DNA from: an uncultured Chloroflexia bacterium
GTDB taxonomy: Bacteria; Chloroflexota; Limnocylindria; Limnocylindrales; CSP1-4
Assembly (NCBI GenBank): GCA_963746845.1
Contig: CAVVCZ010000006.1
Coordinates: 192,001 to 256,000, forward strand
Direction: 5' to 3'
Length of the DNA stretch: 64,000 bases
Shown here: positions 13,117 to 51,529 of the stretch, piece by piece
Layout of the letters: every line of letters begins with the position of its first letter
How positions within the stretch are numbered: position 1 is the first letter of the stretch
The notes under the pieces: generated by a model
Seen by the model: the letters and a program-made list of their open reading frames with translations, nothing else
What the model was told of the DNA's origin: nothing
The model's database searches: none
Translations under genes and position numbers: made by a program

Positions 13117-13923
13117 TTACACCCGACCCTGGTTCGATGCGAACCGGAGATGGCGGATCTCGCCCGAGAACACGGCTCGCCGGCCCCGCCCGTCGTCGAC
13201 AAGGAGCGCCCCCGTCCGGTCATCCACGCCCACGGCATCGACGTCCTCGCGCCACCCGTCCGGAAGCTGGAGGACGACCCGACGCCCGGTCGTCACCTGG
13301 CGCGCGGCCCATGCCGTCGCATCGAACCGTCCGTCGCGCAGCTCGCGGACCCGGCCTTCGAGAGCGGAGAGGAAGGCGTCGAGGAGCGACCCGACGTCGA
13401 CCGGCCGGCCCGCGTTCGCGTCCATCAGCGAGGTCATCGCCCCGGCCAGATCCGGCGGGAAATCGGCCCGGCGCCAGTTCCCGTTCACCCCGATCCCGAC
13501 GATCACGTGCGGGTCGGTCGTCCCGAGGCCGACGGACTCGCCGAGCACGCCGGCGAGCTTGCGGACCGTCGCCCGATCCGCGATCACGAGGTCGTTCGGC
13601 CACTTCAGGCGGATCGTTCCCTCCGGCAGCCCGGCCGCCGCCTCCGCCGCCTCCGCCATCGCGAGGCCCACGACCGCCGGGAGCCGCCAGGCCAGGTCCG
13701 CGCCTAGCCAGCCCGGACGGAACCCGACGGACAGGAGCAGCGCCGCGCGCGGTGGCGCGACCCACGTCCGGCCCTCCCGGCCGCGGCCCGCCGTCTGCTC
13801 GGCCGTGACGGCCAGGCAGACCTCCGGCGTCCCGGCGGCCAGCCAGTCCCGGACGACGTCGTTCGTCGAGCCGACGCGCTCGAAGCGCTCGTGCCGGGAC
13901 AGGAACGGCGCGGTGACCGTCAC
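13117..13923 (-). CDS. birA: biotin-[acetyl-CoA carboxylase] ligase (type I, no HTH)
   Basis: VGSTND, QTAGRGREGRTW, LKWPNDL, KLAGVL, GIGVN. Confidence 0.93.
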   Translation of the reverse strand: MTVTAPFLSRHERFERVGSTNDVVRDWLAAGTPEVCLAVTAEQTAGRGREGRTWVAPPRAALLLSVGFRPGWLGADLAWRLPAVVGLAMAEAAEAAAGLPEGTIRLKWPNDLVIADRATVRKLAGVLGESVGLGTTDPHVIVGIGVNGNWRRADFPPDLAGAMTSLMDANAGRPVDVGSLLDAFLSALEGRVRELRDGRFDATAWAARQVTTGRRVVLQLPDGWREDVDAVGVDDRTGALLVDDGRGRRAVFSGEIRHLRFASNQGRV

Positions 13924-15206
13924 CGGCTCGCCAGGGCCCCCGACGTTGCGTCAACCGCCGCGGAGTCCGGCCGCTCCAGCTCGAACGCCTCGTGAAGGGC
14001 CCGAACCGCGGTCTCGAGGGCGTCCTCCGCGATGATCGTCGTGATCCGGATCTCGGAGGTCGAGATCATCTCGATGTTCACGCCGGCATCGGCCAACGCC
14101 CGGAACATCCGCGCGGCGTAGCCCGGGGCATTCTGGATGCCCGCGCCGACGATCGACACCTTCGCCACGGACGAATCGGTCGTCAGCTCGCGGAAGCCGA
14201 GCTCGCGCGCGATCGGGTCGAGGATCCGCTTGGCCTTCGCGAGCTCGACCTGGGGGATCGTGAAGCTCAGGTCGGTCGCGCTGCCGTGGCCGATGTTCTG
14301 GACGATCATGTCGACGTTGATCCCGGCCTCGGCCAGCGGGCCGAAGACGTGGGCGGCGACGCCCGGCCGGTCCGGGACCTCGACGAGGGTGATCTTCGCG
14401 ACATTCCGATCGTGGGCGAGGCCACGGACCTTGTTCCGCTGCTCCACGAGCGGGTCCTCCTTGATCAGCGTTCCGGGTGCGTCCTCGAACGAGCTGAGGA
14501 CCTCGATGACGACGTCGTTCACCCAGCCGAGCTCGACCGCGCGGGTCTGCATCACCTGGGCGCCCTGGCCGGCGAGCTCGAGCATCTCCTCGTAGCCGAT
14601 GACATCGAGCTGTCGCGACTGCGGGACGATTCGTGGGTCGGCGGTGTGGATGCCCCGGACGTCGGTGAAGATCTGGCAGCGGGTCGCCTTCAGGCGCGCG
14701 GCCAGGGCGACGGCAGTCGTGTCGCTGCCGCCGCGACCGAGCGTCGTGATGTCCGCGCCGGCGGCGTCGTCGCCCTCGGCCCGGCCCTGGAACCCGGCGA
14801 TGATCACGACCTTGCCCCCGTCGAGCTCGCGGCGCACACGGCCGGGGTCGATGGACGCGATCCGCGCCTTGCCGTACCGGCCGTCGGTCGTGATGCCGGC
14901 CTGCGGGCCGCTCAGGCTGATCGCGGCCACGCCGAGCGCGTGGAGCGCCATCGAGACCAGCGTCGCGCTCTGGTGCTCGCCGGTCGCCAGGAGCATGTCC
15001 AGCTCGCGCTCGTCCGGCGTGTCCGTGATCGCGGCGGCGAGGCCGAGCAGCTCGTCGGTCGCGTCGCCCATCGCCGAGACGACGACGACCAGGTCCGAGC
15101 CCGAAGCACGCTCGCGGGCGATCCGCCGCGCGACCCGGCGAATCCTGTCGGCGTCGGCGAGGCTCGAGCCTCCGAACTTCTGCACGACGAGCGGGGCGAC
15201 AGGCAT
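13920..15206 (-). CDS. lysC: aspartate kinase with two ACT domains
   Basis: VVQKFGGSS, VVSAMG, TTLGRGGSDTTAV, INVDMIVQN, MISTSEI. Confidence 0.95.
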   Translation of the reverse strand: MPVAPLVVQKFGGSSLADADRIRRVARRIARERASGSDLVVVVSAMGDATDELLGLAAAITDTPDERELDMLLATGEHQSATLVSMALHALGVAAISLSGPQAGITTDGRYGKARIASIDPGRVRRELDGGKVVIIAGFQGRAEGDDAAGADITTLGRGGSDTTAVALAARLKATRCQIFTDVRGIHTADPRIVPQSRQLDVIGYEEMLELAGQGAQVMQTRAVELGWVNDVVIEVLSSFEDAPGTLIKEDPLVEQRNKVRGLAHDRNVAKITLVEVPDRPGVAAHVFGPLAEAGINVDMIVQNIGHGSATDLSFTIPQVELAKAKRILDPIARELGFRELTTDSSVAKVSIVGAGIQNAPGYAARMFRALADAGVNIEMISTSEIRITTIIAEDALETAVRALHEAFELERPDSAAVDATSGALASR

Positions 15207-15212
15207 CGAGGC

Positions 15213-15218
15213 ATTCTA
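15213..15218 (-). promoter_or_regulatory. -10 box (TAGAAT) of a probable leaderless lysC promoter
   Basis: TAGAAT 6 nt upstream of the ATG; no Shine-Dalgarno. Confidence 0.6.
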
Positions 15219-15240
15219 CCGCCCGCTCCGGCTGGCTCCC

Positions 15241-15372
15241 GAGCCCCCAGCCCCTCGTGGCGTCGCCCCGGGCGCCCCGCCCCGGCGCCCCGGGGCGCCT
15301 CGCGCCGCTGCCGGGCCCCCTCCCCGCGCTCCGCCCCGAGCCCCGGCCCGCCCCTCCCCGCGCCCCGCCCCG
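15241..15372 (-). repeat. G-tract-rich low-complexity segment (potential G-quadruplex on the minus strand)
   Basis: Many CCCC/CCCCC runs separated by short spacers on the + strand. Confidence 0.6.
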
Positions 15373-15376
15373 GCGT

Positions 15377-15544
15377 TTCGCCGTCTTCCCAACCCGTGAA
15401 CACGGTGGGATGTCCACGTCCCGGATGTGCACCCACGATGCATCCGGGGCGCATCCGGGCCGCCGAAACCGCCCGTCCCGCACGGCCCGTACGTCGGGTC
15501 ACGCCGACCGTCGCGCGGAGTTCACGGGTTGAACATCCGGTGAC
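15377..15544. repeat. ~170-nt palindromic repeat unit, copy 1
   Basis: Aligns with 16267-16434 at offset 890; internal inverted arms caacccgtgaac / gttcacgggttg. Confidence 0.8.
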
Positions 15545-16197
15545 CGGATGAAGACGATGCCGCGCGGCGGCGTCCCGACTGGCCGACGGATCCAGGACCG
15601 GCACGCCTGCGCCGGTGCCGGCAGCGCCGCACCGAACGCCGGGGCGTGCCGGGAGATCCGCGCCCGGTTCGTCGTGCCTTCGCCCACCACGAGCAGGGCG
15701 GCGACCGGCCCCGCCCGCCAGCCTCGCTTGCGCGCGATCTCCGGCGTGAGCCGCGCCTTCCGGTCGATGCCGATCAGCGTCTGGTTCGCGTCGCCGATCG
15801 ACGCCTTGACTTCGACCGCCACCAGGGCGCCGCCGGGGTGTCGCCCGAGGACGTCGATCGAGCCTCGCTCGCCGAAGATCGCGAACGACACCTCAACCGC
15901 GACCTCCCAGCCCGCTGATCGAAGCCAGCGAACTGTCGCATCGACGATCGTGGCGTGGCGCTCGTCGATCAGCCGGTCCAGCGTCGCGCCGCGCCACCGG
16001 AGATCGAGATCCAGACGACCATCAAGCGCGGCTGCGATCGCCTGAAGATCCGCGAAGGCGATCCGTTCGATCCGTCCGGTCTCGATCCGGGAAACCGTCG
16101 ATCGCGAGAAACCGCAACGTTCCGCGAGCTGGGCCTGCGTCCATCGTCGGCGATCCCGGAGGGCGCGGATGGCTCGGCCGAATCGCCAGCGATCCAT
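15499..16197 (-). CDS. XRE-family HTH + PD-(D/E)XK restriction-endonuclease-like domain protein
   Basis: IRALRDRRRWTQAQLAERCGFSRSTVSRIETG (HTH_3), then GWEVAVEVSF...GSIDVLGRHPGGALVAVEVK (E...D...ExK nuclease core). Confidence 0.8.
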   Translation of the reverse strand: MDRWRFGRAIRALRDRRRWTQAQLAERCGFSRSTVSRIETGRIERIAFADLQAIAAALDGRLDLDLRWRGATLDRLIDERHATIVDATVRWLRSAGWEVAVEVSFAIFGERGSIDVLGRHPGGALVAVEVKASIGDANQTLIGIDRKARLTPEIARKRGWRAGPVAALLVVGEGTTNRARISRHAPAFGAALPAPAQACRSWIRRPVGTPPRGIVFIRSPDVQPVNSARRSA

Positions 16198-16266
16198 CGG
16201 ACCAGTTTCGCGATGCGTCCTTATCGCCCGGTCATCGCTCCATTCGTTCGGCGGCTCCCATTTCCG

Positions 16267-16434
16267 TTCGCCGATTTCTCGCTCGGTGAACTCCAGGTGC
16301 TGTCCGCGACCCCGAATGTGCACCCATGACGCCGGCGGGGCAGTCCGGGCTCACGCGCGGCCGAGGTCGAGCGTCGCGGTCGACGAAATCGGGCCGCATG
16401 TCGCGCGGTGTTCACGGGTTGAACATTCAGTGAC
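16267..16434. repeat. ~170-nt palindromic repeat unit, copy 2
   Basis: Shares ttcgccg..ttc.c, gtgaac, tgtcc.cg.c, atgtgcaccca, tccgggc and tcgcgcgg.gttcacgggttgaacat.c.gtgac with copy 1. Confidence 0.8.
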
Positions 16435-16495
16435 TCGGGCGTTCGCTGCCGCTCCGTCCGAGTCGCAGTAGCCTTCGAGCGGAGGTATCCGCCGC

Positions 16496-17278
16496 ATGTG
16501 CTTCGATCTCGACTCCCGCCCGCCGATCACGCCGATCGCCGGCGGCGCCCTGGACTCGTCCGAGCTGACCCTCGACGCCGAGGACGGCAACCGGTTCCGG
16601 GCGTTCCGGGCGCGGGCGACGGGGGGAACCGGTGCGGGGATCGTGATCCTCCCGGATGTGCGCGGGCTCCATCCCTACTACGAGGAGCTGGCCCTCCGGT
16701 TCGCCGAGCACGGCGTCGATGCGCTCGCCATCGACTACTTCGGGCGGACCGCGGGTCTCGGGCGACGCGGCGACGCGTTCGAGCACATGCCGCACGTCGA
16801 GCAGACCACGTGGGCCGGTCTCTCGGCCGACATCCGGGCGGCGGCGCGGAATCTCCGCGATGACGACGAGGGGCGCGTCGACGCCCTGTTCGCGACGGGC
16901 TTCTGCTTCGGCGGTCGCCTGGCGTTCCTGACGGCCACGCTCGGGATCGACCTCGCCGGGTCCATCGGCTTCTACGGCATCCCGGTCGGGCCGGGCCGCG
17001 CCGACATCCCGGCGCCGGCGGACGTCGCCGACGAGATGCGCAACCCGATCCTCGGCCTGTTCGGCGGCGCGGACGGCGCGATCGGGCCGGACAAGATTTC
17101 CGCGTTCGAGGCGGCCCTGACCGGCGCCCGCGTCGAGCACCGGCTCGTGGCGTTCGACGGGGCGCCGCACAGCTTCTTCGACCGCAAGGCGGACGAGTTC
17201 GCCGATGCGAGCGCCCGCGCCTGGGAGGAGACGCTCACGTTCGTCCGCGGCCACACGCCGAGCGCGATCGAGGCCTGA
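16496..17278 (+). CDS. dienelactone hydrolase family protein
   Basis: PDVRGLHPYY, GFCFGG nucleophile motif, GGAD, APHSFF; RBS ggagg. Confidence 0.9.
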   Translation: MCFDLDSRPPITPIAGGALDSSELTLDAEDGNRFRAFRARATGGTGAGIVILPDVRGLHPYYEELALRFAEHGVDALAIDYFGRTAGLGRRGDAFEHMPHVEQTTWAGLSADIRAAARNLRDDDEGRVDALFATGFCFGGRLAFLTATLGIDLAGSIGFYGIPVGPGRADIPAPADVADEMRNPILGLFGGADGAIGPDKISAFEAALTGARVEHRLVAFDGAPHSFFDRKADEFADASARAWEETLTFVRGHTPSAIEA

Positions 17279-17280
17279 TC

Positions 17281-17535
17281 GTGGGGTTCCTGAAGCGGCT
17301 GCTCGGCGGCTCCGACGACGCGGCGACGCCGCCCGCGACCGATCCGGCGGTGCCGACGGAGCCAGAGCTCACGCCCGAGGAGATCGAGCGGGCGCACGAG
17401 CTGGAGCTGGCGCGGTTCGAGCAGGACCGGACGACCGATCTCGTCCGGCGTCAGCAGCAGTACAGCGACAAGTCGTGGGTGCCGCCGGCACAGGGCGGCA
17501 CGGTCCGGGCCGGCGACGAAGAGGTGTCCGGCTAG
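17281..17535 (+). CDS. small hypothetical protein
   Basis: Follows the hydrolase stop by 2 nt; amphipathic N-terminus MGFLKRLLGG; typical codon usage. Confidence 0.65.
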   Translation: MGFLKRLLGGSDDAATPPATDPAVPTEPELTPEEIERAHELELARFEQDRTTDLVRRQQQYSDKSWVPPAQGGTVRAGDEEVSG

Positions 17536-17717
17536 CGCTTCGCCAGCTTCCAGGCCGACGCGACGAGGACCACGAACACCACGACCGCGAGCATCCCGCC
17601 CGGGAGCGTCCGGTCAAGCGCGCTGACCATGCCGCGGAGCGTGTCGCCGATGAACATCACGGAGCCGGTGACCATGCCGCTGATCCCCGATCCGACCGAC
17701 TGAAAGAGTCCGCCCAT
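17532..17717 (-). CDS. small membrane protein
   Basis: 61 aa with a C-terminal hydrophobic helix followed by basic residues. Confidence 0.6.
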   Translation of the reverse strand: MGGLFQSVGSGISGMVTGSVMFIGDTLRGMVSALDRTLPGGMLAVVVFVVLVASAWKLAKR

Positions 17718-17802
17718 GCCCGGAGTCTGGGCTCGCCGTCAATCGCCCCGGACTCCACCGGATGCCACCCCACGGCCGGGGATGTGCACCCGTGCACCGC
17801 GT

Positions 17803-18765
17803 TCAGGCGCGCTTGATCACCTGGGCGCCGTGGTTCAGCGGTGAGACGACCGTGATGTGGCCGGTCAGGTCCGTGTCGGCCGCCGCTGCGCCGAATGCGG
17901 CCTCGATCCGGGTGATCGTCCGGACGCTGTCCGAGAACGCGATGATGGTGGACCCGGCACCCGACAGGCATGCCCCGATCGCGCCGGCGCCGCGCGCGGC
18001 CTCGATGAGCTGCGGCAGCTGCGGGTAGACCTTCGCGCGATAGGGCTCGTGGAGCCGGTCCACAGTGAGGATCCGGAGGAGGTCGAACCGCCCGGTGGCC
18101 ATCCCGGCGACCCCGATCGCGACTCGGGTGAGGTTCGCGATCGCGTCCTCGAGCGGCACGGTCTTCGGCAGGGCCGACCGCATCTCCTTCGTGGGCAGGC
18201 GGAGATCCGGGACGAACAGGACCGCACGAAGGTCCCGCGGCGCGTCGAACCGGAGCGCCTCGACGACGCCGTCGATGATCGCGCAGGCCGTGAACCCGCC
18301 GAGGACGGCCGCGGCCGCGTTGTCCGGGTGCCCCTCGATCTCGGTCGCGAGCCGGATGAGGTCGCCCTGGGTCAGCGGCTCCCCGAGGAGCGCATTGCCC
18401 GCGACGAGGCCCCCGACCGTCGCCGCGGCCGACGAGCCGAGGCCGCGCGCGAGCGGGATCTCGTTGTGCATGTCGATCCGCCAGCCGACGCCCTCCGGCA
18501 TCTCCCCGCGGACCTCGCGGAGGGCGGTCTCGATCCCGAGGACGCAGCGGTTCGTCCGGTCCGACGGCAGCTCGCCCACCCCCTCGCCGTCGACGGTCAG
18601 GTCGATCTCGCCGCGGCTCCACCCGCGGACCTCGACCTCGATCCGGTTCGTCAGGCCGAGCGCCAGACCAAGACAGTCGTACCCCGCGCCGAGATTCGCG
18701 CTCGTTGCCGGGACCTCGACCACGACGCGCCGCCCGTCGAGCTCGGCGAGCCAGTTCGTCACCAT
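17803..18765 (-). CDS. thrB: homoserine kinase
   Basis: [39 protein letters not shown]. Confidence 0.95.
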
Positions 18766-28754: not shown

Positions 28755-28819
28755 TCTGTTCTCCTTGGTCGGACGCCACTGTAGCGGACCGCAGGTCGGG
28801 CTCGGGGCCGACCGATTCC

Positions 28820-28985
28820 CCGACTTCTCACCCTGTGAACACGCCGAGGACCGTCGCGGGCCACGGGCGCGGATTTCGTGCGTGGACGGCCGCGGATCGA
28901 CGCTTTGGATCCGCCAGATGACGCGTGAAGGGAGAATCCGGCGACGATTCCTTGGGGGGTGATCTTCCGGTGAGAATCCGGTGGT
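28820..28985. repeat. solo, divergent relative of the 15.4/16.3-kb repeat unit
   Basis: ccgacttctcaccctgtgaacacg resembles ccgtcttcccaacccgtgaacacg (15381); terminal IR ttctcacc (28825) / ggtgagaa (28969); ends aatccggtg. Confidence 0.5.
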
Positions 28986-29049
28986 CCGCCAGGTCGGACC
29001 CGTCGGTGCAGGAGGACACGCACCCATCTCTGATGAGCACCATGGACAT

Positions 29050-50235: not shown

Positions 50236-50305
50236 GGACGACTGAAGTCGCGGATCAGAAGCTCGGCGTTGTCGAGCAGAACAGCACGACCGCCCGGCGC
50301 GCTCC

Positions 50306-51529
50306 TCAGGCGGCGGAGATCGGCTCCGGCTGGGCGACCCCGGCATCGGCCGCGAGGATCGCGGCCTTGTCGGTCCGCTCCCACGGCAGGTCGAGCTCCG
50401 GGCGTCCGAAGTGGCCGTACGCCGCGGTCTGCCGGTAGATCGGGCGGCGCAGGTCGAGCGCCGCGATGATCGCGGCCGGCCGGAGGTCGAAGTGGCGCTC
50501 GATCAGGCGCTGGATCTCCGCATCCGGGATCCGCCCGGTCCCGAACGACTCGACCGAGAACGAGATCGGCCGGGCGATCCCGATGCCGTAGGCGATCTCG
50601 ACCTCGAACCGGTCGGCAAGACCGGCGGCCACGACGTTCTTCGCGACCCACCGTGCGGCGTACGCGCCGGACCGGTCGACCTTCGTCGGATCCTTGCCGG
50701 AGAACGCGCCACCGCCATGACGGGCCATCCCGCCGTAGCTGTCGACGATGATCTTCCGGCCCGTCAGCCCGGCATCGCCCATCGGGCCGCCGGTGACGAA
50801 CCGGCCGGTCGGGTTGACGTGCATCACCGGGTCCGTGTCGCGCAGCTCCTGCGGGATCGACGGCAGGATCACCGCCTCGACGAGGTCGTCGTGGAGCTGG
50901 TCGGCCCGGACGTCGGGGTCGTGCTGGGCGGCGAGGACGACGGTCCGGACCGCCTTCGGGACGCCGTGCTGGTACTCGACGGTGATCTGGGTCTTGCCGT
51001 CCGGCCGGAGGTACGGCAGCTGGCCGGTCTTCCGCGCCGCGGCGAGCTTCTGGGCCATCCGGTGGGCCAGCGCGATCGGGAGCGGCATCAGCTCCTCGGT
51101 CTCGCGGCAGGCGAACCCGAACATCATCCCCTGGTCGCCCGCGCCGAGCTCGTTCGCGCCCCCGTCGTCACGGGCCTCGAGCGCCGCGTCGACGCCCTGC
51201 GCGATGTCCGGCGACTGGCCCTTGACCGAGATCAGCGTGCCGCAGGTCTGGTAGTCGAAGCCGTAGTCCGCCTTCGTGTAGCCGATGTCCCGAACGGTTT
51301 CGCGGACGATCGTCTGGAAGTCGACGTAGGTGTCGGTCGTGATCTCGCCGAGGACCACGACGAGGCCCGTCGTCGTGGCGGTTTCGCAGGCGACGCGGGC
51401 ATCCGGGTCCTCGCGCACGATCGCGTCGAGGATCGCGTCGGAGATCTGGTCGCACATCTTGTCCGGGTGACCCTCGGTCACCGATTCGGACGTGAAGAGG
51501 TACTGCGAAGCGTCGACGATGCTGGTCAT
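50306..51529 (-). CDS. metK: methionine adenosyltransferase
   Basis: [43 protein letters not shown]. Confidence 0.97.

Follow-up and report, generated by a model that had tools for sequence, protein, structure and literature searches.

Within a 64,000-nt stretch of contig C6 from an uncultured Chloroflexia bacterium (hereafter the window; source genome G000, an assembly of 3.56 Mb in 12 contigs, 71% G+C and 92% complete), two copies of a ~180-nt palindromic element bracket a gene for a helix-turn-helix (HTH) protein with a predicted PD-(D/E)XK nuclease-like fold. Reading from the left, the locus comprises lysC on the minus strand, a low-complexity tract, the left element, the HTH gene, also on the minus strand, the right element and a divergent dienelactone-hydrolase-family gene (DLH) on the plus strand (Table 1). 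A preliminary description of this DNA, made from the letters alone, had proposed either a non-classical mobile unit whose nuclease spreads palindromes in the manner of repetitive extragenic palindromes (REPs) and their REP-associated tyrosine transposases (RAYTs), or a nuclease accompanied by RNAs with a scaffold and a variable segment. The explanation that we favor, at a probability of roughly 0.55, is that the element is a DNA palindrome belonging to the tail of the gene, that the right copy is a gene-less (solo) offshoot, and that the nuclease-like protein would work with its cognate palindrome, following a logic like that of REP/RAYT systems.

Table 1. Features of the lysC-DLH locus and a further element copy, in window coordinates (R3, a 13-copy covariance model).
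Feature	Position	Strand	Remarks
lysC (aspartokinase)	13920..15206	-	Left border of locus; Pfam AA_kinase 4.4e-44 plus ACT domains
Low-complexity G+C-rich tract with CCCCGCCCC-like short repeats	15220..15376		Between lysC start and left element; repeat families D4, D5, D12
Left palindromic element, gene-linked 3' module	15371..15551		R3, E 2.8e-20
HTH + PD-(D/E)XK-fold gene, 232 aa	15499..16197	-	Pfam HTH; predicted fold; last ~17 codons inside left element
Right palindromic element, gene-less (solo)	16261..16441		Between HTH gene start and DLH gene; R3, E 3.1e-18
Dienelactone-hydrolase-family gene (DLH)	16496..17278	+	Right border of locus; Pfam DLH 4.8e-33
Third element copy in window, solo	28810..28992		R3, E 2.9e-14 (C6:220810-220992)

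Both copies span 181 nt between model boundaries, with conserved ends around an unrelated 50-nt core, and the covariance models score them at E 1e-18 to 1e-44. The preliminary description had recognized two degenerate direct repeats, offset by 890 nt, on either side of a single gene, and this arrangement was confirmed by direct repeats D3 (15503-15544 / 16393-16434, 42 nt, 86%, spacing 890) and D7 (15420-15450 / 16311-16341, 31 nt, 81%, spacing 891). The cores are indeed as unlike as had been claimed, their identity of 36% comparing with 32% +/- 6% in shuffles (p = 0.33). Over the whole element the left and right copies agree at 79% mean column identity in a MAFFT alignment and at 51% in an ungapped comparison, with 74% over the last 47 nt, and a BLAST search of all 3.56 Mb of the assembly returned the right copy as the only other match below E 0.01 (2.9e-7 and 0.023). 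In the left copy the outer arms lie at ~15378-15410 and 15511-15544, the inner hairpin at 15421-15447 and the variable core at ~15461-15510. Folded in silico, this copy forms one long hairpin (z -2.3), and the right copy alone folds poorly (z +1.4).

Two perfect inverted repeats had also been reported as linking the copies, and both are present: the 14-bp pair CAACCCGTGAACAC / GTGTTCACGGGTTG, contained in the longer inverted repeat I9 (15390-15410 / 16401-16421, 86%), and the 9-bp pair ggagttcac (15517) / gtgaactcc (16286). The left copy's own 3' arm (15511-15531), however, pairs with the same 5' arm at 81% (I13), and because arms already pair inside one copy, the apparent outer inverted repeat is a mere reflection of the palindromic nature of each copy. 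The observation that the C-terminus of the protein reads into the left repeat stands, since the stop codon (15499-15501) lies inside that copy, with the boundaries now revised to those of Table 1.

The protein is likely to start at the ATG at 16197 and not at the GTG at 16323, as 30 of 39 aligned homologues begin at the equivalent M/V-D-R, the remainder having longer (7) or shorter (2) N-termini. Residues 1-63 (~16009-16197) form an XRE-type HTH domain (Pfam HTH_31, 7.5e-15; HTH_3, 1.2e-12), and residues ~80-222 (~15532-15960) a domain that is predicted to adopt the PD-(D/E)XK fold. Among 40 aligned sequences D78, H81, E102, D115, E129 and K131 are invariant, and D115 together with E129-V-K131 fits the PD-(D/E)XK signature. 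The AlphaFold2 model has a predicted local distance difference test score of 89.5 and strands in the expected order, residues 223-232 being of low confidence. For the C-terminal domain, Foldseek returned SduA, the R2 retrotransposon endonuclease, AF1548, NucS/EndoMS and Card1/Can2, with a probability of ~1.0 for the R2 endonuclease, NucS and AF1548; VIA-align of residues 80-222 placed the XisH structures 2inb (Z 10.2, root-mean-square deviation 2.8, 111 aligned) and 2okf (Z 10.0) ahead of AF1548 (Z 9.7). At the level of sequence, only the HTH passed the Pfam cut-off, there being no match to XisH (PF08814) and an MmcB-like score of 15.5 bits (E 0.014) against a cut-off of 22; the best NCBIfam candidate, YraN, was sub-threshold (E 0.015, 15.4 bits against a cut-off of 111); PADLOC matched the HTH region alone (capH, HTH_VI and control protein, residues 3-79), with nothing beyond a generic HTH; and a protein atlas yielded only unnamed Chloroflexota clusters. 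Membership of the PD-(D/E)XK nuclease superfamily is thus supported for the C-terminal domain at the level of the predicted fold, where the structure model and the invariant residues bear out the earlier domain call. Some 1250 homologues are present in the protein collection. They include a 130-aa product from the same contig (P0050) that matches 56% of the query at 99% identity, so that the source annotation seems to have a shorter gene than the 232-aa one which the homologues support. Third-position G+C is 0.79-0.84 in family genes (0.81 in the HTH gene) against 0.94 in lysC and DLH.

The left element is the normal 3' appendage of genes of this family. Relatives of the source genome are labeled G0xx, 43 genus genomes in all, and in the other sub-clade an element built in the same way, with different arms, occupies the same place at all seven lysC-linked genes (G056, G020, G024, G004, G054, G012 and G022). 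The arm shared by G056 and G024, CCGRATGTCCGYGGTGCGGGCGTTAC, occurs twice in direct and once in inverted orientation at the gene; its motif recurs at two further loci in G056 and one in G024, and was found neither in G053, G020 and G000 nor with a reversed control pattern. Further paralog groups repeat the build with still other arms. A second paralog of the source genome, p3 (C6:284076-284723), has its own 3' module (C6:284706-284920) with arms TCTGTCAACCGGCC... / ...GGCCGGGTGACAGA, and at least three gene-less relatives of this module (C6:415740, C1:276700 and C6:365200) make up a second private palindrome family.

To measure the link between gene tail and palindrome, we took the 75 nt that follow the invariant G213 codon, reverse-complemented them and aligned them to the next 265 nt, comparing each gene's own flank with the flanks of other genes; this local alignment superseded an ungapped inverted-repeat finder anchored at stop codons, which had missed most modules. 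In the genus set the own-flank score exceeded the non-cognate mean for 22 of 25 genes, with z >= 2 in 15 and z >= 3 in 12 (Wilcoxon 4e-6), and the spans between arms were 129-180 nt, with one of 248 nt. A second set, drawn from elsewhere in the class (other genera and one further family; 23 genes from 27 loci, two short flanks and two early-ending matches having been dropped), gave 16/23 above the mean and z >= 2 in 11/23 (p = 0.003). Kin are not independent and both p-values therefore overstate the significance, the direction being consistent in both sets. Recurrence of the flanking repeat in homologues, which the preliminary description had put forward as a check, was accordingly seen on one side of the gene: a 3' palindrome accompanies 15/25 and 11/23 genes, and the right (5') copy is confined to the source genome. 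The proximal arm begins 4-35 nt past the G213 codon, and hence encodes the variable, low-confidence C-terminal tail of the protein.

A profile built from the two copies at the locus gave one match in G057, one in G017 and a partial one in G048, each between lysC and the 3' end of the gene, and none in spacers that lack the gene. The left copy is thus orthologous, at the same position, in these three genomes. The spacer from gene start to DLH is 298 nt in the source genome and 138, 136 and 99 nt in G057, G017 and G048, and because it is so short in the latter the right copy is specific to G000. In G048 two element copies stand in tandem between lysC and the 3' end of the gene (C4:50056-50245 and 50268-50461).

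The BLAST result within the source genome, two copies only, had suggested a private duplication, a reading that was overturned by further copies found with covariance models. A stricter model, R1, built from four copies, recovered diverged copies missed by BLAST in G000, G017 and G048; outside these three and G057 it gave no full-length match in any of the 39 remaining genus genomes. The structure of R3 was set by hand, RNAalifold having given only 8 pairs on the alignment, and this model supplied the genome-wide count that had been called for, namely 7 loci in G000, alongside 6 in G017, 7 in G048 and 1 in G057; no locus was found in any of five relatives without the gene (G016, G007, G011, G021 and G052). 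All seven G000 copies measure 181-183 nt, and copies across genomes 172-194 nt. Two length classes can be told apart, the inner distance from GTGAAC to GTTCAC being 118 nt in copies of 181-183 nt and 130-131 nt in copies of 190-194 nt. The consensus ends read TCGCCGAATTCTCACC..GTGAACA and GTGTTCACC.GGTGAGCATTCGGCGA, and the inner hairpin (CCGAATGCGCACC...GCATTCGG) is a second, direct copy of the outer motif. The outer stem comprises 29 pairs, 76% of which are formed across the 13 copies. Taking outer stem and inner hairpin together, pairing reaches 77.5%, against 29-44% when the partner is slid; column shuffles, however, pair at 76%, and 42/500 reach the observed value. Because shuffles pair nearly as well, the palindrome is accounted for by conserved sequence and not by measurable covariation, and the covariation check suggested at the outset came out negative.

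Outside the genus set, a pattern scan of public genome contigs returned seven stretches, of which four fit the model and come from metagenome-assembled genome records of Limnocylindrales/Chloroflexota; stretches from Truepera, Rariloculaceae and Actinomycetota had no model match and were set aside as chance. The three stretches from a scan of metagenome contigs all look like chance as well, two being 36% G+C with weak scores and the third lacking a model match. Among sequencing runs no RNA set was listed for the query, and five soil DNA runs contain 0.15-0.22 of its words. Within the source genome, a scan with a 16-nt end motif gave 23 matches against 6 in the reversed genome, and no end pair enclosing a transposase was recognized; one pair 5 kb apart on C8 was rejected, having no element structure.

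Among 15 copies the nearest kin of the right copy is the left copy (60% overall, 67% and 75% at the two ends), and on that ground the simplest origin for the right copy is as a local offshoot of the module at the gene. Most likely, judging from these sequences, it is an extra gene-less copy that arose from the left one in the lineage of this species. The 14 solo loci in G000, G017 and G048 share no flank homology at E 1e-10, whereas orthologous DNA among these genomes is ~70-89% identical; on this comparison of flanks the solo copies are lineage-specific insertions. At one solo site on C5 of the source genome, the flanking convergent genes lie 305 nt apart, against 12 nt in G057 and 25 nt in G016, where the site is empty. 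Two extra tandem copies of the first ~17 nt (GGCGATCCGCCCGTCCC) precede the 5' end of this solo (C5:333660-333730) and may trace its copying-in. No remnant of a family gene was detected within 1.5 kb of eight solos (29 query proteins, E 0.05). Of the seven copies in G000, four occupy divergent or upstream spacers, and one solo lies between convergent genes, 46 nt past a stop codon. The third copy in the window sits between two divergent genes, one for an FAD amine-oxidoreductase (-) and one for a PLP-decarboxylase (+); the Pfam domains of a long open reading frame that overlaps it begin only at residue 163, which places the copy upstream of the real start. A Y1_Tnp domain (PF01797) was not found in the 92%-complete G000, control genomes matching in 6/14 cases; this search was for Y1_Tnp and did not extend to other transposase families.

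Whether the element acts as DNA or as RNA bears on a quite different proposal, in which the ~180-nt copies are guide or regulatory RNAs of the nuclease, like the omega RNAs over the 3' end of tnpB. The overlap with the end of the reading frame fits such a role, as does the tightly kept length of the seven G000 copies in spite of unrelated cores. An RNA helix would leave a preference for wobble pairs on one strand. In the 13-copy alignment G:T mismatches outnumber A:C ones by 44 to 29 (p = 0.10), the strand choice of the model itself favoring G:T, and the arms of those genes whose repeats are clear (20 of 48) contain 33 G:U-type mismatches on the sense strand against 45 on the antisense strand (p = 0.21). 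Because there is no wobble strand preference, and because the covariance models score elements on both strands, we read the element as a DNA palindrome, the interpretation favored by these sequence comparisons. Against a guide RNA, and against the scaffold-plus-variable-segment RNA of the preliminary description, stand in addition the shuffle result given above, a search of positions 14000-18000 with Rfam 15 whose sole match was a chance-level snoRNA outside the elements (E 0.35), the failure of the right copy to form the shared hairpin, and solos that lie far from any family gene. Such a role is unlikely, and we give it very little credence. A T-box or riboswitch leader for lysC was also discarded: empty-site relatives run lysC from a 71-nt spacer, and elements have no consistent orientation to downstream genes.

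The history of the gene at this site was read from the relatives. Family matches occur in 24/24 genus genomes of a first draw and in 0/16 genomes of a sister family with ~1.1-Mb genomes; across 201 Chloroflexota genomes (E 1e-25) the family is confined to one class, with matches in 6/7 and 8/12 genomes of two families and none elsewhere. The source genome alone has 12 family matches, about six of them full length. The interval between lysC and DLH was readable in 38 of the 43 genus genomes, and the gene is present there in 11: G000, G057, G048, G017, G024, G056, G004, G054, G020, G022 and G012, the last with a broken ortholog split in two frames. In the other 27, lysC and DLH are 71-764 nt apart (one of these empty loci, G010, is also a row of the flanking-gene tree, and no result depends on it alone). 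lysC itself is syntenic in 36 of 39 loci read, the three without it being G017, G022 and G014. Extra DNA lies beside the gene in G004, where lysC and DLH are 3.9 kb apart, and in G054, where DLH is ~14 kb away; in G057 the matches to lysC, DLH and the HTH gene are all frame-split, which looks like assembly frameshifts and not like three pseudogenes. The low-complexity tract directly upstream of lysC falls inside the segment missing from empty-site relatives (query 94-1315 is absent in G016).

The preliminary description had called for a look for empty-site alleles in related genomes. They exist, and three of them retain relics of the first codons, namely codons 1-18 in G052 (78%, E 7e-5), codons 1-9 in G013, and codons 1-13 in G023 together with 63 nt that are 78% identical to the gene start of G022; these empty sites are therefore products of deletion. 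In a tree of 29 family proteins, which leaves out G057 and G012 on account of matches split by frameshifts, the copies next to lysC all fall into one clade (9/9, support 95/97), and the other G000 paralogs cluster with orthologs from other species. The relics, together with a single clade at a syntenic site, indicate that the gene was ancestral at lysC|DLH and was deleted repeatedly. Thus, we conclude that the HTH gene is an old chromosomal resident of this spacer, deleted in most relatives.

This history bears directly on the notion that repeat, gene and repeat move as one composite cassette. Two similar copies do bracket the gene in the source genome, and the tandem pair in G048 also lies beside it; however, the 5'-side copy occurs in 1/11 gene-bearing genomes, the locus is syntenic and its genes monophyletic, relics mark three of the emptied spacers, and none of the nine other G000 paralogs tested has similar sequence on both sides, a feature of this HTH gene only. 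The mobile-cassette interpretation of the gene and its two repeats is accordingly rejected, and of all the readings considered here it has the least to recommend it, a composite cassette being in our judgment still less likely than guide RNAs.

A homing-endonuclease-like selfish gene would account for presence and absence in another way, by cutting the empty spacer, invading it with the palindrome as part of the invading unit, and then decaying and being lost. In the flanking-gene tree (32 rows, 588 columns; seven loci with <350 aligned residues dropped) filled genomes are indeed scattered at this one fixed site, the six filled rows needing six changes, at least four of them forced by well-supported branches. 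The broken copy in G012 and the deletion relics would fit as stages of decay, the gene tree joins G000 with G048 and G017 where the flanking genes place them apart, and third-position G+C differs from that of the neighbors (0.81 against 0.94). Orthologs at the locus are, however, only 53-82% identical, on long branches that give no sign of recent transfer, other paralogs occupy other fixed sites with their own orthologs in relatives, and a flanking-gene tree of only 588 columns may itself carry recombination. Invasion by homing is in our view improbable.

The main rival to the favored explanation concerns function and not history. Here the palindrome would be a cis-acting 3' structure only, such as a terminator, an mRNA-stabilizing hairpin or an autoregulatory operator, and the protein an ordinary XRE regulator whose nuclease-like domain serves dimerization or ligand sensing; the solos would have spread by an unrelated route such as replication slippage, recombination or another transposase, and could serve as terminators or insulators. 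The element does separate the HTH gene from lysC, which follows it in the same direction, the solo 46 nt after a stop codon sits between convergent genes, and long stems kept with paralog-specific sequence fit selection for structure. In the available part of PMC3424549, HTH-PD-(D/E)XK fusions are read as plain transcription regulators. Several observations speak for the other side. A promoter/terminator consensus scan scored no terminator-like site; G:U pairs lack the strand bias expected from an RNA hairpin; D115, E129 and K131, residues of catalytic type, are invariant in 40 sequences, which would not be required of a purely structural domain; the four of seven G000 copies in divergent or upstream spacers are not behind genes; and composite palindromes of 130-200 nt with a duplicated arm far exceed the size of a terminator. 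We regard a solely cis-acting role as rather unlikely.

The explanation we prefer, in which the protein works with its own palindrome, can be cast as a sequence of steps. The ~180-bp palindrome is the normal tail of the family, with one outer arm starting in the last codons and its partner 130-200 nt downstream; a second, direct copy of the arm is usually present, and the core between the arms is free to vary. The HTH would bind the repeated arm motifs of its own palindrome, and the nuclease domain may cut or nick the palindrome, as a duplex or as an extruded or single-stranded hairpin. Repair or copying after cutting could occasionally seed a new solo copy elsewhere, and each paralog would in this way keep a small private palindrome family. 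In the descriptive part of this account we have high confidence: it takes in the anatomy of gene and palindrome, the link between them across the family, arms that differ from paralog to paralog, solo insertions in single lineages, the history of synteny and loss, and the fold with its conserved residues; that the protein acts on the palindrome is a tentative proposal to which we would give slightly less than an even chance. The broader generalization is more doubtful still: that Limnocylindria-restricted family genes each own a private ~180-bp palindrome, copies of which are seeded by nuclease processing, independently of REP/RAYT and with a different catalytic fold.

A number of points weigh against the proposal. 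Element copies are few, a genome having 1-7 of them where REPs commonly number in the hundreds, and no solo copy adjoins any paralog. No target duplication is visible at the C5 site, where the borders are blurred by divergence and by the triplicated 5' end and where the filled/empty comparison is a single one. Some 40-50% of family genes lack a clear 3' inverted repeat in what is a crude test, biased towards ungapped repeats. Spread is not general, as BLAST gave no second copy of the G004 element in G004, G022, G054, G012 or G047. The absence of the element from gene-less relatives could stem from shared history and not from dependence on the gene, and the "species" tree used for loss and gain was built on the two flanking genes only. 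The regulator reading of HTH-fused families, cited above for the main rival, belongs here as well.

An enzyme gene accompanied by its own dispersed palindromes is known mainly from REP/RAYT, where the enzyme is a HUH transposase; in Ca. Limnocylindrales, an uncultured soil group, that logic recurs with an unrelated enzyme that combines an HTH with a restriction-endonuclease-like fold. If the protein does act on the palindrome, a nuclease-repeat system, whether domesticated or selfish, would have originated here independently; it would offer sequence-specific hairpin or duplex nucleases whose targets are easily read from the arms beside each paralog's gene, and would explain the upkeep of a 2-15-copy "XRE regulator" family in small genomes. 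If it does not, the attractive idea of a novel mobile cassette still gives way to a documented history, in which an old gene at a syntenic site was deleted several times over and one additional copy of the repeat arose.

How the system compares with known ones can be set out feature by feature. According to the abstract of PMC3733652, the repeat units of REP/RAYT systems measure 20-40 bp, bear a GTAG or CGTC tag and reach high copy number, and they occur as inverted pairs able to fold into larger structures. As in REP/RAYT, a single-copy chromosomal gene stands next to palindromes of its own type, the same type is dispersed between genes, and separate gene lineages have separate cognate repeat types: the G000 type was found at the gene, as the right copy and at five further loci, the G056 type at the gene and two others, and the p3 type at the gene and at least three others. 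Unlike REP/RAYT, the enzyme has an HTH and a PD-(D/E)XK fold in place of HUH/Y1, the units are ~180 nt long (172-194) with no GTAG/CGTC tag at the aligned ends and 1-7 copies per genome, the repeat overlaps the last codons of the gene, and each of several paralogs in a genome possesses a module of its own. The analogy drawn in the preliminary description therefore holds for the cognate palindromes at the 3' ends of most genes, for the dispersed gene-less copies and for the lack of HUH/Y1, while its remaining part, a nuclease that acts on the palindromes, is inferred.

Miniature inverted-repeat transposable elements resemble the solos in being non-coding and shorter than 300 nt, in having long terminal inverted repeats around a variable middle, and in forming lineage-specific intergenic insertions with empty sites in relatives. 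They differ in that no target-site duplication was seen here (at one site), the end-motif scan revealed no parent insertion sequence that shares these ends, and one copy is welded in every ortholog to the 3' end of a gene outside the transposase families. Integron attC sites have core sites of the form RYYYAAC ... GTTRRRY and go with an integrase and cassette arrays. The present element shares with attC an imperfect palindrome at or over the 3' end of an open reading frame, conserved ends, a variable center and gene-specific sequence; its ends, however, read GTGAAC ... GTTCACG, and GTTCACG is not GTTRRRY. It is also ~180 nt long, and its linked gene is always of the same family. Among the neighboring genes, which by Pfam include lysC, DLH, a biotin ligase and a sigma factor, there is no integrase adjoining the element and no cassette array, IntI not having been searched for in the genome as a whole.

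In TnpB/IscB systems the 3' end of the nuclease gene overlaps a structured element of ~150-250 nt. The layout of the present locus is similar to that arrangement with its omega RNA, an element lying over the 3' end of a nuclease-like gene, but the protein has no RuvC or HNH domain and the element shows neither strand bias nor covariation nor an Rfam match. The protein itself finds its closest parallels in COG1395, COG5482 and Replic_Relax, "predicted transcriptional regulators" in which an HTH is likewise fused to a restriction-endonuclease-like domain, and in XisH (2inb, 2okf), the best structural match of the C-terminal domain (Z ~10). XisH is listed in the PD-(D/E)XK superfamily, and HTH-fused families of that superfamily are proposed as transcription regulators (PMC3424549, in the part available). 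The present protein differs from XisH and from the HTH-fused regulators in having no sequence-level membership of these families, for which the same part of PMC3424549 mentions no cognate palindrome. A full-text literature search, which did not cover subscription journals, retrieved neither a description of these or any other repeat families in this lineage nor a report of a RAYT-like role for a restriction-endonuclease-like protein. Set beside these systems, the pairing of gene and palindrome looks like a previously undescribed partnership, and it is probably a new variant of the theme in which an enzyme gene is accompanied by private palindromes.

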